Shown here: piece after piece, positions 42,401-45,400 of the stretch
Layout of the letters: every line of letters starts with the position of its first letter
Numbering within the stretch: the first letter of the stretch is position 1
NCBI GenBank assembly: GCA_965197645.1
Contig: OZ240219.1
Span: 2,208,001-2,272,000, forward strand
Source of the DNA: Dehalococcoidia bacterium
Lineage (GTDB): Bacteria > Chloroflexota > Dehalococcoidia > Plut-88900
Direction of reading: 5' to 3'
DNA: 64,000 nucleotides
Program-made: the position numbers

Positions 42401-45400
42401 CTTCAAGGTGCTGGACAGCGATATACACGTTACCGAGCCCGATACTCTGTGGGCCGACTACATGGAGGCCGACTTCAAGGACAGCGCTCCGGTCAGAGTG
42501 GTTGACGAAGGCTCTTGGTCGGCAGGCATGTGGAGATCGGATGGAAAGCTTCTGCCGGCCTACATGGACGTAGCGGAACGCAGCAGGACCATGCGGGTGC
42601 GGGAGGAGATCTCCGCGGAGCGGTACGTCCAGTCCGGTCGGCAATTGGTCAGTGGCGCCGAGTCCGATCAGGATGAGGGGACCCGTCCCGAGCACATGCT
42701 GGAGGCCATGGGGGTGGAGGGGGTAGACGTAGCGGTGGTCTTCCGTACCATGGGCGCCCACGTCATCGGGATCGACGAGATGGACCCCAACCTTTCAGCC
42801 GCCATCTGTCGGGGCTACAACGACTGGCTCTACGATTTCTGCGCCGCGCAGCCATCCGCTCTGAAGGTAGGCGCCCTCATGCCGATGCAGGACGTGGACC
42901 TGGCTGTCCACGAGGCCAACAGGGCCGTTGACAAGCTGGGGGCGGTCACCTTGATACTGCCCAGCAATCCGGTTTGCGAGCGGCCCTGGTACTCGGAATA
43001 CTACCACCCCTTCTGGGCCGCAGCTGAGAGCCTGGGAGTCCCCGTCTCCTTTCACGGCATCCAGATGGCCTATCAGGACCATCTGGCCCGAAGGTACATG
43101 GACAATCACGTCCTTGGACACTCGGTGGCGCACCCGGTCGAGATGATCTGCACCGCCGGCGCCATGGTGAGCGGAGGCATATTCGAGCGGTTCCCCACCC
43201 TCAAGACCGCCTTCCTGGAGGGCCACTCCAGCTGGGTCCCCTGGTGGCTCTACTGCCTGGACGAGCACGAGGAGAAGATGGGCGACAAGGAGCGGTTCGG
43301 GCTGGTCCTCTCACCCAGTGAGTACTTTCTGCGCCAGTGCTTCGTCTCGGTAGACCCTGACGAGGCCCTCGTCAAGTACACCATCGATGCCATCGGCGAC
43401 GACAACCTGGTCATCTCCACCGACTGGCCCCACGACGACTCCGCCTATCCCAACGCCATCGATACCTTCCTGGGCTTGGAGGGAGTATCACAGGCCAGCC
43501 AGCAGAAGGTGCTCTGGGACAACTGCGCCAGGCTTTACGATATCGACTAGGCGTCCCTGCGGAAAGTTAACATAACTTACGCCCGGTCTTTGATGAGGGC
43601 GGTCACGGGCCCACCGGCGTCTCCGTACATCACCATGCTCTTGCCCGCCGGGCCGCCCACCACGACCACGTCGTAGAAGCTGGAGTTCTCTACGACGCGT
43701 AGATAGACATCCTCCAGCTCCGAGTCGGACCTTTCCAACAGCCACCGCCACTCGGGACGGAACACCTCTGGGGTCTTGCGGCCCCAGCTCAATGCCAGTC
43801 GAGCGTTGACCTTCGAGTAATGGTGGACGTACTCCCGGACCGATCGCTTGGTCCAGCCGGCCTGCCCGCAGATGTTGGCGTGCTCAGGACACATGGCCAA
43901 GAGAAGCCGGTCGGTGGCCTCTTCGACGTCGAAGTAGTTGATCACGTACCTGGCGGCGTGGTTGGAGCAGGTAACGGCGAAGCTGTCGAGCACCCTTTCC
44001 GGCTCCCAGTTGGTCAGGTCGTCCACGTCCTCCTCGCCCAGGGTGTCGAAGAGAGTGACGGTGCTCTGGTCGTTATCGTATCCCCGGTCCACGTGATATC
44101 CGTTCCAGGGACTTTCCTCATCGTTTTCTGCGAAGCAGAGGCTGAACTTCCTGGACGAACCGATGGTGTCCATGTCCATCCGGCCCGGATAGGCGTTGCC
44201 GACGTTCATCAGTACCAGCCGGAACGCTCTGCCCAGGACCACGTTGTGGCGGGAAGGGGCGCCAGGGCCCATGGCGCACCGGCCCGAGTTCATGCCGATC
44301 TCCCTGGCTATGGGACCGTTCACCATCATCAACGGTGCGTTGGCGCTGGTAGACATCGTCAGCGCTCTGGCCGGCGTGCCGAACCGGGGTAGTGCTTCAC
44401 AGGCCGCCATCAGCACCGGCAGGTGGATGGGCTCGCAGCCCGCCATCACGGCGTTGATGGCTATCTTCTCGACCGTGGCGTATCTCATGCCTGGCGGCAG
44501 AATCGAGACCACGTCCTGGGGGTCCCTGGTAGTGCCTCCCAGCATCGCGTTCACCTTCTCGGGGGTGGGCGGAATGATGGGAAAACCGTCGCCCCACTCC
44601 TTCTCGATGAAGAGCCTGTTCAGGGACTCGAAGGCATCGTACCTGTCTTCTCCATGAACGGTCAGAGACTCGGCGGCATGCGCATCGGCGATGGCAGCGC
44701 CATTGGCCCCGTTGATATCGGTTGTCAGGACCTCGACTATCTGGTCGAAGGAGTTGGTCACGTGTTCCTCGATGCGCTCGGGACTGAGGCCGGTCAGCAC
44801 CTCGGGGACCAGGGCATAGCGGAACTGGGGGAACCCGAAGGCCCGGGCGCTGACCATAGCGTCCCGCGCAAAACCCTCGGAGACGATGCTGACGGTGGGC
44901 TTGCCGGCCTTCTCCACCTGGACCATGTCGTGGACAAGCCACGACGTGCAGGAGCCTCAGTCCCCGGTTGAGCCGACGATCACGTCGCTCTCGGCTATGG
45001 CCTGCTTGAGAAGGTCCTCCCGACAGGGCTGGCTGCCTTCGTACCGTCGCACTGTGACGCCGCTATACCGATTGGAGATCAGCTCCCCCGCTTTGTCCAG
45101 GGCCTCCAGACCTCCTCGCTTGGCGTTCCACACAAGCCCGACGTTCAGCCCGTCCAGAGAGTTGGGCCGATGCGCCGGATGGCTGATCTCGTGGTCTCCC
45201 TGGGCGTCCGCCACCGGATGCAGTATCTCCATGGTATACATGATTCCCCCTCCCCGATTCATGAGAAAGTTACGAGAAGTGTAGCGAAATGCACCCGGCA
45301 GGGCAACGACGAGCCCGCCAGGCCCCTTGGGCGAGAGCCGCGTCGGTGGAACACACCCGTGGGGATATCCACGCGTCTATCGATGCCTTCTAGGAGTCGC

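Follow-up and report, generated by a model that had tools for sequence, protein, structure and literature searches.

UGSC selenoproteins and a conserved partner of about 350 residues as putative halves of one selenoenzyme

A fused selenoprotein gene and its in-frame TGA

The window analysed here, a stretch of 64,000 nucleotides from the genome of a Dehalococcoidia bacterium, carries on its minus strand a gene (43577–45241) that translates into a single protein of 554 aa when its one in-frame TGA is read as selenocysteine (U95, in the motif GDUGSC). Pfam PF24696 (UGSC) matches residues 5–173 (E 7e-38, 130.9 bits against a cut-off of 25), and the rest of the protein gave no further Pfam match at E≤0.05, in agreement with an earlier survey of this genome, which had confined the UGSC match to the N-terminal 173 residues of the fusion. 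The NCBIfam equivalog NF041046 scored 106.7 bits, under its cut-off of 125 bits, and the C-terminal partner domain matched no model in either collection, as the survey had also reported. The AF2 model of the whole fusion reached pLDDT 95.4 and pTM 0.94. The features of the locus, in window coordinates, are the following.

43577..45241, minus strand: gene of the UGSC-partner fusion, a 554-aa selenoprotein (U95), with its stop codon; one open frame with TGA read as U, Pfam UGSC on residues 5–173
44723..45229, minus strand: UGSC domain, residues 5–173; Pfam match, AF2 model, VIA, hhalign to GrdB
44957..44959, minus strand: TGA codon of selenocysteine 95, motif GD-U-GSC; translation, TGA in the same column at other loci, Sec machinery encoded
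44927..44945, minus strand: SECIS-like hairpin GUCGUGG-CUUGU-CCACGAC; RNA fold
44669..44722, minus strand: interdomain linker, residues 174–191, the sole lower-confidence stretch (mean pLDDT 66 for residues 181–190)
43580..44668, minus strand: partner domain, residues 192–554 (363 aa), without a family model in Pfam and NCBIfam or a relative by PDB sequence search
44435..44437, minus strand: codon of partner Cys269, NAVMAGC motif; conservation alignment
42390..43550, plus strand: Amidohydro_2 (PF04909) gene, convergent with the fusion gene (Pfam E 7.6e-29), context only
45445..47211, minus strand: ABC-2 permease and ABC ATPase genes, upstream, with a 207-nt gap to the fusion gene (gene calls and Pfam), context only

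The genome encodes tRNA-Sec, SelB and SelA, so that the in-frame selenocysteine codon comes together with its decoding machinery. At the column of Sec95, 95 UGSC domains from 80 other loci have TGA in 84 cases, Cys in 5 and neither in 6. Downstream of the TGA, a hairpin begins 14 nt past the U of the UGA and is encoded by conserved T-S-W..H-D codons. When the 84 UGSC sites with TGA were pooled, the 48 nt 3' of this codon folded more stably (mean MFE −16.7) than the sequence upstream (−13.1), the sequence downstream (−12.4) or shuffles (−12.5), with Wilcoxon p≤1.6e-7. This pooled test supersedes the individual 63-nt folds following the TGAs of this genome, which gave z-scores of merely −1.6 to +0.2. 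The Rfam SECIS model had no match in window positions 43000–46000, bacterial SECIS elements being poorly modelled. Under a 31-letter rule no RNA contig spanned the TGA, and gene stretches lacking RNA contigs are uninformative in this respect.

Coupling of the UGSC and partner families

A profile search found four UGSC matches in the genome, each with exactly one in-frame TGA, and the three stand-alone copies scored 173–188 bits against the Pfam model. A tblastn search with the last 381 aa of the fusion recovered seven partner paralogues (34–37% identity), of which four are fused or linked to UGSC. These are the same four loci at which the survey had placed every UGSC gene of the genome beside, or within, a member of a seven-member family of about 350 aa. 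Besides the fusion, they comprise three pairs (contig positions).

Pair 1: partner 810538–811578 and UGSC 811616–812164, separated by about 40–70 nt
Pair 2: partner 824661–825746 and UGSC 827152–827703, with an Amidohydro_2 gene in between
Pair 3: UGSC 2775177–2775731 and partner 2776941–2778041, with a PrdB-like selenoprotein gene in between

Around the other three of the seven paralogues we looked for a UGSC gene nearby and found none, the same number of unaccompanied members as had been counted before.

The association extends well beyond this genome. Within the class, both families are confined to the identical 23 of 61 genomes. Hand counts in the nine fully listed genomes placed a partner within 5 kb of 26 of the 27 UGSC genes; seen from the other side, 21 of the 41 partner genes were fused to UGSC or lay within 300 nt of it, 11 more lay within 5 kb, and 9 had none. 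The 95 UGSC domains of the 80 loci, which come from many phyla, included 65 fused forms, 19 split pairs with UGSC first and 11 with the partner first, and 92 of them lay within 300 nt of a partner, a sample biased by the choice of loci for their likeness to the fusion. In five genomes of other phyla the numbers of UGSC and partner genes were equal (1:1 in four, 2:2 in the fifth), all fused or adjacent, and the same pairing was seen in Actinomycetota, Bacillota, Pseudomonadota and a haloarchaeon. The link between the two families is near-obligate and not a matter of occasional fusion. The shared genomes, the proximity, the coexistence of fused forms with both split orders, and the complex model described below all support the survey's suggestion of a two-part system in which UGSC would be the redox module of an unnamed enzyme.

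Searching with the fusion by phmmer returned 5132 matches at E≤0.001, exactly the number reported earlier. Among the best 150 of these, 46 were 500–660 aa long (the survey had counted 38 full-length fused proteins of 528–657 aa), a count that omits six proteins of 709–741 aa, which were also left out of the structure alignment. The partner has more than 5000 relatives, from soil, groundwater, sponge, cultured bacteria and a haloarchaeon, with Nonomuraea corallina, Robertmurraya sp. and Natrialba asiatica among the cultured carriers. Every source name seen was still 'hypothetical protein'. Paralogues number up to dozens per genome, and some relatives have at least 47 such genes. The Atlas neighbour cluster again contained PF24696, now in 41% of its members (16% before).

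The neighbours of the pairs vary (TctC, SDR, DUF6282/Amidohydro_2, CoA-transferase and others) and indicate no single substrate. Since the genome holds 86 Amidohydro_2 matches, the adjacency of one of them to the fusion gene is weak evidence of a link. We scanned 134 neighbouring proteins from 75 of the 80 loci, namely 132 ORFs within 400 nt of a pair and two added by hand (L086:7410-8240 and L039:6990-7838); some genes had escaped the ORF call. Amidohydrolase-superfamily genes occurred among them in just six loci (DUF6282 in L069, L073, L080 and L086; Amidohydro_2 in L039 and L069; TatD in L046), and Amidohydro_2 was therefore rejected as a fixed third component. Such a gene is a recurrent but minor neighbour; it stands between UGSC and partner in L069, L073 and L080 as well as in the second pair of this genome. 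A further locus, L037, belongs to the operon set of the DUF6282 cluster by BLAST clustering, its ORF being outside the 134 scanned. A 485-aa 'family' cluster in 28 loci turned out to consist of antisense shadow ORFs, and a PrdB-like gene, as in the third pair, is not a general neighbour either: none of 16 other PrdB-like loci had UGSC or partner within 1.5 kb. TrxR genes are close by in only 2–3 of the 80 loci; a TrxR-like gene shares the operon in L027, L073 and L080, and in L027 and L080 a TrxR-Trx fusion or TrxR gene lies directly beside the pair. Rhodanese genes are direct neighbours in two loci, L053 and L083.

UGSC is among the most abundant selenoprotein families of aquatic metagenomes, and reviews as recent as 2026 continue to treat it as uncharacterised. 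Zhang & Gladyshev 2008 (PLoS Genet, PMC2398784) describe, for their Figure S1A, a 'UGSC/Unknown_1 fusion', in which a UGSC selenoprotein is joined to a conserved unassigned domain with a conserved Cys, much as here. The fusion has thus probably been known since 2008, with Unknown_1 likely being the present partner domain.

Structure and relatives of the two parts

In its AF2 model the UGSC domain runs through five beta-alpha units in succession. The motif follows the third strand, the Sec standing at the start of helix 96–111, right after strand 87–93; in a thioredoxin fold the redox motif opens the first helix. VIA matched residues 27–178 to flavodoxin, CheY, B12-binding and PurE-like chains (Z 9–11.4). 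These models suggest a flavodoxin-like fold, against the thioredoxin fold proposed in 2008 (Zhang & Gladyshev, PMC2398784). The thioredoxin fold was missing from the list of fold matches, an absence that does not exclude it.

Profile comparison pointed to a more specific relationship. Aligned by hhalign with a GrdB profile, UGSC reached a probability of 94.6% (E 6.4e-8) over 97 columns that place Sec on Sec, and with PrdB-like proteins 72% (E 3.3e-5); the controls gave E 0.2 and 0.03 for reversed profiles and 0.29 for a GrdE-like profile. The Pfam GRDB model (PF07355), which stops just before the Sec, had no match to the fusion at E≤1. Judged by these profile alignments, UGSC is distantly homologous to the C-terminal, Sec-bearing region of GrdB and PrdB, and it would be a minimal member of their kin, not an orphan family. 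All three have a strand followed by U-G-S/T-x, a helix and then E..G.PT, and the PrdB-like genes of this class have a U-x-x-C motif, as UGSC does. Unlike GrdB, UGSC has only about 180 aa and is without the first ~215–330 residues. GrdB and PrdB are the substrate-specific selenoprotein subunits of the glycine/sarcosine/betaine and D-proline reductases, in which a Sec nucleophile serves to cleave a C-N bond reductively, and they are not general reductants. They work with a second, substrate-binding polypeptide, a role that the partner may play for UGSC, with the difference that the partner shows no relation to GrdE and PrdA (PF09338), the pyruvoyl proproteins. The genome also has true GrdB (Sec) genes, adjoined by GrdE-like genes and away from UGSC, and the UGSC system is therefore separate from them.

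The model of the partner alone was confident (pLDDT 95.7, pTM 0.93), above the values of the survey (88 and 0.89). Its conserved residues, in fusion numbering, are W216, D218, G219, P224, P225, T226, T256, N263, M266, A267, G268, C269, T298, G309, P310, N333, R338, N346, D356, E372 and W379. Sequence searches against the PDB gave chance rows at E≥0.96 (PurE at E 1.2, HNF1-beta, PilP). Fold searches were as poor as before: Foldseek found nothing at E≤0.001 (best E 4.4e-3, TM 0.21–0.25) and the best VIA match, including a wide search and a second look, had Z 6.7, compared with TM 0.28 and Z 5.4 earlier. The survey's statement that the partner has no known fold match holds for the parts that these searches covered; the N-terminal half with the conserved core was barely tested, since the fold rows span mainly model residues 133–355.

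The Z 6.7 match superposes the C-terminal subdomain (fusion residues ~401–541) on chorismate mutase 1fnk (rmsd 3.0, 91 residues), that is, on the alpha+beta sandwich of the Bacillus chorismate mutase, YjgF-Rid and IspF-like type. Barbiturase-type chains, the 'Toblerone' cyclic amide hydrolases built from the same sandwich, covered 156–175 residues of the partner at Z 4.8–5.5. All these Z values lie below the tool's usual background of 7–8 and so indicate a common arrangement only. Neither resemblance is accompanied by sequence similarity, and both leave the conserved N-terminal half of the partner uncovered. By hhalign the partner showed no relation to GrdE/PrdA-like profiles (E 0.1–0.17, probability <1%), and E ranged from 0.1 to 0.42 over the whole set of GrdE/PrdA-like, GrdB, PrdB-like and UGSC profiles. 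A row with 99% probability obtained under -norealign, of 25 columns and 20% identity, was discarded as spurious, the alignment behind it being full of gaps.

As to whether the two proteins interact, a point raised by the survey, we modelled a pair that occurs naturally as two genes and in Cys form, that of locus L039. It scored 0.83, the best of three controls 0.01. Of 80 solved complexes 58 reach the score mark, and so do 2 of 110 mismatched pairs, rates that hold only roughly here because our own alignments were used for this pair. At least 81% of the contacts agreed between runs and the partner had pLDDT ≥84. As a prediction, the model supports binding of UGSC to the partner without proving it. 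In it the UGSC protein (202 aa) docks through its N-terminal strand (1–14) and the U-x-x-C loop, with a predicted interface of residues 1–14, 94–96, 98–100 and 123 on the UGSC side and 35–38, 60–67, 73–74, 77, 151, 155–156 and 163–166 on the partner side. The loop would thereby sit on the conserved polar pocket of the partner, formed in fusion numbering by the PPT motif, T256, N263, M266, L342, N346 and D356, which suggests, as far as models go, a composite active site at the interface. The PDB holds no solved complex of a like kind and no sequence relative of either part.

A proposed selenium-dependent reductase

The coupling of UGSC to one partner, together with its relationship to the Sec part of glycine and proline reductases, suggests a widespread two-part reductase. 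Our favoured reading, to which we give somewhat better than even credence, sees in UGSC and its ~350-aa partner a single selenoenzyme in two halves, which would work as a Sec-dependent reductase, share a composite active site and be encoded in one chain as in this window or by neighbouring genes. A small organic substrate, probably carboxylated, would be bound by the partner and reduced by Sec95 as the nucleophile; if PrdB is taken as the model, the reaction would most likely be the reductive cleavage of a C-X bond. Cys98 could then resolve the selenium adduct into a selenenyl-sulfide, from which a thioredoxin system may regenerate the selenol, as the TrxR genes beside the pairs of L027 and L080 would fit. 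Paralogues, being many, would be variants for different substrates, placed in catabolic gene clusters. The PrdB analogy comes without an electrophilic cofactor, because the partner is unrelated to the pyruvoyl subunits GrdE and PrdA. Further points that count against this reading are the shortness of the GrdB alignment, the 9 of 41 partner genes that have no UGSC within 5 kb, the varied neighbours, the scarcity of TrxR genes and the members, counted below, that have neither Sec nor Cys at the site. A more far-reaching version, which we regard as possible and rather doubtful, would make this a new class of Sec-dependent reductases, with a PrdB-like Sec module on a structurally new, pyruvoyl-free substrate-binding subunit that in some Dehalococcoidia has diversified to dozens of substrate-specific copies per genome.

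The chemistry might instead take place on the partner, at Cys269, Cys369 or another centre, with UGSC as a dedicated thioredoxin-like reductant that re-reduces a partner disulfide or sulfenate at each turnover. The U-x-x-C motif does resemble a redox-active dithiol, and the literature files UGSC under thiol oxidoreductases. Position 269 holds Cys in 126 of 144 rows and Ala in 16, making it the best conserved Cys of the partner, though not an obligatory one, and Cys369 is kept in 108 of 143. In the predicted interface the U-x-x-C loop also comes close to the NAVMAGC helix, with residue 77 (equivalent to M266) in contact, but residue 80, the equivalent of Cys269 itself, falls outside the confident contacts. 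Where the UGSC of the pair is of Sec type, which applies to 83 partner domains, C269 is present in 64 and A269 in 19, and 10 of the 19 also lack Cys369, which argues for Sec as the catalyst and not as a reductant of disulfides. Nor is loss of the Sec/Cys at position 95 clearly tied to loss of Cys269, absent in 3 of 12 redox-dead and 4 of 39 Cys95 forms. The substrate specificity of GrdB and PrdB, the nearest relatives of UGSC, speaks in the same direction, and we consider chemistry on the partner unlikely.

Methionine sulfoxide reductase with its thioredoxin offers a parallel for such an arrangement, in the U/C-x-x-C motif, in the exchange of Sec and Cys among homologues and in the TrxR genes near a few UGSC loci. 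It differs in having no sequence or fold relation to the UGSC pair, in that UGSC is a fused or dedicated redox module and not a general cellular reductant, and in that about a quarter of the pairs can do without the partner cysteines.

Alternatively, the pair could be a carrier or sensor, for selenium or sulfur trafficking or for redox sensing, serving the varied enzymes around it instead of reducing a metabolite. The wide variation of neighbours between loci and the adjacent rhodanese genes would fit this, as would those fused members that have lost the Sec/Cys: neither residue is present in 12 of 51 fused proteins among the best 150 phmmer matches and, as given above, in 6 of the 95 domains, so that in some members UGSC must serve without redox chemistry. 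The partner, on the other hand, has many invariant polar residues of the kind that line catalytic pockets, its paralogue numbers of up to dozens per genome are what substrate-diversified enzyme families look like, and the Pfam scan of the fusion found no DNA-binding or signalling domain, all of which makes a carrier or sensor quite improbable to us. That the coupling is an artefact, with the TGA a true stop between two unrelated ORFs or the adjacency a product of large paralogue families, we can practically dismiss, for even though this genome is rich in expanded families (Amidohydro_2 among them) and gene callers cut these genes at that codon (some 50 of the top 150 matches begin after the Sec), similarity runs on past the TGA, Cys forms have no stop there, a SECIS-like structure follows it, and the two families have identical phyletic patterns and the same pairing in distant phyla.

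For the Sec-dependent reductase that we favour, a near-constant partner, the probable descent from the Sec module of glycine and proline reductases and a predicted Sec loop on a conserved pocket give what had been an orphan motif an enzyme hypothesis that can be tested. Because gene callers end these genes prematurely at the TGA, the sizes of Dehalococcoidia selenoproteomes may be greatly underestimated. If the proposal of a new reductase class is true, some Dehalococcoidia would own the largest selenoproteomes known and would have a selenium-dependent route to the reductive breakdown of recalcitrant organic acids.

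The fusion gene and its selenocysteine codon

The gene that joins UGSC to the partner family runs through 554 codons of a single frame in which the only interruption is a TGA at codon 95, translated within the motif G-D-U-G-S-C (residue numbers follow this fusion unless stated). Residues 5–173 match the Pfam family UGSC (PF24696, E 7e-38, 130.9 bits against a cut-off of 25), with the NCBIfam equivalog NF041046 at 106.7 bits, under its cut-off of 125. No match to residues 174–554 was obtained in Pfam or NCBIfam, or in the PDB by sequence. The genome, a single 3.21-Mb contig of 60.8% G+C, encodes tRNA-Sec, SelB and SelA, and a SECIS-like hairpin starts 14 nt past the UGA.

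Fusion gene and hairpin (window coordinates)
43577–45241, minus strand: UGSC-partner fusion gene
44927–44945, minus strand: SECIS-like hairpin, GUCGUGG-CUUGU-CCACGAC

Rfam did not find a SECIS in the stretch around the gene. When 84 UGSC sites of 80 other loci were pooled, the mean folding energy of the 48 nt past the TGA was -16.7 kcal/mol, more stable than stretches upstream (-13.1), downstream (-12.4) or shuffled (-12.5; Wilcoxon p≤1.6e-7). Here and at the corresponding place in the 84 other UGSC genes, the codons of the conserved T-S-W-x-x-H-D motif past the Sec encode both arms of the hairpin (UCGUGG / CCACGA), so that part of this conservation may be an RNA constraint.

Three RNA libraries with the label sponge metatranscriptome gave contigs that matched the gene at about 97–99.5% identity (window 43400–45500; e.g. 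209 nt with one difference, 306 nt with eight), although libraries of this kind can contain DNA. By the read-matching rule applied, no RNA contig in the three libraries bridged the TGA. A DNA contig from another study, which extends over the full stretch, shows 75 differences in 2101. Very deep pile-ups were confined to UGSC and NAVMAGC, the two motifs that are conserved best, and they show that many paralogues are present in those sponge-labelled communities.

Coupling of UGSC and its partner across genomes

As the survey's finding had it, the genome holds four UGSC genes and seven paralogues of the C-terminal domain; each UGSC gene has one TGA, and the paralogues stand at 34–37% identity. 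Four of these paralogues are coupled to UGSC, one by fusion and three beside stand-alone UGSC genes at gaps of about 40–70 nt, 1.4 kb and 1.2 kb, and we likewise count three without a UGSC neighbour. The 5132 phmmer hits reported for the fusion were also reproduced; among the best 150, 46 are 500–660 aa long, and the Sec column carries Cys in 39 of the 51 rows with a residue there and another residue in 12.

To see how general the coupling is, a partner-only profile and the Pfam UGSC model were both run on a single even sample of 61 genomes from the class. Each family was present in 23 of them, and these were the identical 23. Linkage was counted by hand in the nine of these 23 genomes with every match listed, where the numbers are descriptive only, kin genomes not being independent: of 41 partner genes, 21 were fused to a UGSC gene or at most 300 nt from one, a further 11 lay within 5 kb of one and nine had none, while 26 of 27 UGSC genes had a partner within 5 kb. 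The 80 loci, from a scan for relatives of the fusion with one genome per species, were picked by likeness to it and are thus biased towards linked forms. They contain 95 UGSC and 98 partner domains, and a partner lies within 300 nt of 92 of the 95. Sixty-five pairs share one frame with no stop besides the Sec TGA, 19 are split with UGSC first and 11 with the partner first; the Sec site is TGA in 84 UGSC domains, Cys in five and neither in six. The sources are Dehalococcoidia, Betaproteobacteria, Alphaproteobacteria, Acidobacteriota, Methylomirabilota, Actinomycetota (Nonomuraea corallina, Mycobacteriaceae), Bacillota (Robertmurraya sp.) and the haloarchaeon Natrialba asiatica. Five of these genomes have UGSC to partner counts of 1:1, 1:1, 1:1, 1:1 and 2:2, always fused or adjacent. 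The occurrence of fused forms and of either gene order across phyla counts as classic evidence for UGSC and the partner working as one unit.

A scan of 134 neighbouring proteins at 75 of the 80 loci showed no universal third gene. It took in 132 ORFs no more than 400 nt from the pair, together with L086:7410–8240 and L039:6990–7838, which the ORF call had overlooked and which were added by hand. The setting is one of organic-acid catabolism and uptake.

Families found beside the UGSC-partner pair
TctC receptors: 9 loci, all Betaproteobacteria
Short-chain dehydrogenases: 5 loci
DUF6282: 4 loci
CoA-transferase III: 3 loci
SBP_bac_5: 3 loci
Metallo-beta-lactamase: 3 loci
Glyoxalase: 3 loci
Amidohydro_2: 2 loci
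MmgE/PrpD: 2 loci
Acyl-CoA dehydrogenase: 2 loci
Lyase_1: 2 loci
Rhodanese: 2 loci
TatD: 1 locus

DUF6282 stands between UGSC and partner in loci L069, L073 and L080 and after the partner in L086, and an Amidohydro_2 gene (825853–826983) separates partner and UGSC in one pair of our genome. An amidohydrolase-superfamily gene lies in or next to the pair in lineages as distant as Dehalococcoidia, Acidobacteriota and a haloarchaeon, and such pairs may form a subtype having a third component. The fusion gene itself is preceded by ABC-transporter genes and convergent with an Amidohydro_2 gene, an adjacency that means little given 86 Amidohydro_2 (PF04909) matches in this 3.2-Mb genome. Many luciferase-like monooxygenase and amidase genes surround its partner loci, the mark of a catabolic genome with strongly expanded paralogue families. 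Window 36583–38878 and 50882–52234 hold two amidase genes (one apparently 5'-truncated) and the gene of a protein that has three rhodanese domains.

The copy number of UGSC can be far higher. In G033, a genome of the same class (about 5.0 Mb; completeness 96%, contamination 7%), at least 47 UGSC matches were obtained: all 47 candidates scored, from 208 at first look, match with exactly one TGA each. It also has 271 partner candidates, and the D-TGA-G-x-C motif occurs 65 times against five for the reversed control pattern. A second genome (G035) has 45 UGSC matches, and very large expansions were also seen in G051 and G023. The largest bacterial selenoproteomes, as given in a 2026 review, comprise 57 and 63 selenoprotein genes, so one family in one MAG may rival the record.

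UGSC resembles selenoprotein B; its partner has no clear fold match

The whole fusion gave a confident AlphaFold model (pLDDT 95.4, pTM 0.94). In it UGSC is predicted to form five beta-alpha units, with the Sec opening the helix after the third strand, and the Foldseek and VIA matches listed for this part are flavodoxin-like, CheY-like, B12-binding and PurE/LarB-like chains only (SsuE, E 3e-4; Z 9–11.4 over residues 27–178). This predicted flavodoxin-like fold does not fit the thioredoxin-like one proposed by Zhang & Gladyshev 2008 (PMC2398784).

The third split pair of the genome has a PrdB-like selenoprotein gene inside it, which prompted a comparison of UGSC with GrdB and PrdB, the Sec subunits of the glycine/sarcosine/betaine and D-proline reductases.

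Reductase-type selenoprotein genes of the genome (contig coordinates)
2775824–2776666 (L094:1426–2268, outside the window): PrdB-like (Pfam GRDB), U163 in VPA-U-PLDH, between UGSC and partner
2856093–2857139: GrdB-type
256545–257585: GrdB-type
401324–402358: GrdB-type

An in-frame TGA occupies the same site in all 16 other PrdB-like loci of the class, but neither UGSC nor the partner lies within 1.5 kb of any of them. Profiles were built from 58 UGSC sequences, 12 full GrdB selenoproteins of the class read through the Sec and 17 short PrdB-like selenoproteins. UGSC matched GrdB with a probability of 94.6% (E 6.4e-8, 97 columns), residues 73–173 pairing with GrdB 328–427, Sec on Sec, and matched the PrdB-like profile at 72% (E 3.3e-5); the values for reversed profiles were E 0.2 and E 0.03, that for a GrdE-like profile E 0.29. 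HMM scans never joined UGSC and GrdB because the Pfam GRDB model ends just ahead of the Sec. The literature excerpts covered list the two side by side without drawing a link; Pfam's own text, which possibly records a clan, lies outside this scope. The frames of the three GrdB-type genes run on through a TGA (checked for L091, L092 and L093; e.g. U350 in T-U-G-T-G-T-R). The three GrdB-type genes and six Gly_reductase (GrdE/PrdA-like) genes, the GrdE-like ones beside the GrdB-type ones, suggest that glycine/betaine-type reductase components are present in an organism of this class.

The partner is unrelated to GrdE/PrdA, the pyruvoyl proproteins of those reductases: its profile gave E 0.1–0.42 against the GrdE/PrdA, GrdB, PrdB-like and UGSC profiles. 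Modelled alone (pLDDT 95.7, pTM 0.93), it had no Foldseek match at E≤0.001 (best, class I fumarate hydratase, E 4.4e-3, TM 0.21–0.25). Among 48,161 chains in VIA the top match was chorismate mutase 1fnk (Z 6.7, 91 residues, rmsd 3.0), which like encapsulin, IspF, Rid/YjgF, PrpD and Toblerone-fold hydrolases (Z 4–6.4) falls below the tool's stated background; these matches span mainly the C-terminal subdomain and barely cover the conserved N-terminal half. Invariant or near-invariant polar residues are D218, T226, T256, N263, N333, R338, N346, D356 and E372, with one well conserved cysteine, C269. Six proteins of 709–741 aa (P0167, P0178, P0181, P0183, P0234, P0246) are each a tandem of two partner domains and lack UGSC, and in several genomes of the class partner genes come in runs and outnumber the UGSC genes, which hints that the partner acts as an oligomer, the tandems suggesting a dimer.

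A predicted composite site

We modelled the split pair of L039, a locus from a Sphingomonas MAG that naturally has Cys where others have Sec. The predicted complex scored 0.83 against 0.01 for the best of three controls; 58 of 80 solved complexes attain the score mark, as do 2 of 110 mismatched pairs, a rough guide only, the alignments being our own. At least 81% of contacts agree between runs, with partner pLDDT of at least 84. No complex of this kind has been solved, neither part having a sequence relative in the PDB. In L039 numbering, the confident interface would involve the UGSC N-terminal strand (1–14), the redox loop (94–96 and 98–100, with 94 the Sec position) and the invariant Phe123, facing partner residues 35–38 (PPT motif), 60–67, 73–74, 77, 151, 155–156 and 163–166, which are the conserved pocket residues (fusion numbering offset by 189–191). 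The model supports, but does not show, binding of UGSC to the partner.

The C269 equivalent is absent from the confident contacts of the model. Of 83 partner domains paired with Sec-type UGSC, 19 have Ala at 269, ten of them also lacking Cys369, so an explanation by which UGSC merely re-reduces a disulfide of the partner cannot hold for a quarter of pairs. We favour the Sec as the catalytic nucleophile: the partner would hold the substrate, the Sec would attack it, Cys98 would be the resolving thiol and the thioredoxin system would recycle the enzyme. In PrdB, too, a Cys acts as resolving thiol. Thioredoxin reductase genes adjoining the pair in L027, L073 and L080, once fused to thioredoxin, fit such recycling, yet are rare.

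The fusion itself is probably already in print, as a 'UGSC/Unknown_1 fusion' with a conserved Cys in Zhang & Gladyshev 2008 (PMC2398784), and UGSC is still listed as uncharacterised in reviews of 2022 and 2026. As far as our searches of the literature reach, the near-obligate coupling, the flavodoxin-like model with the GrdB/PrdB homology, the predicted composite site and the scale of the expansions are new. The UGSC-partner system would belong with the Sec-dependent reductases of the selenoprotein-B type, acting with a partner that has no clear fold match.
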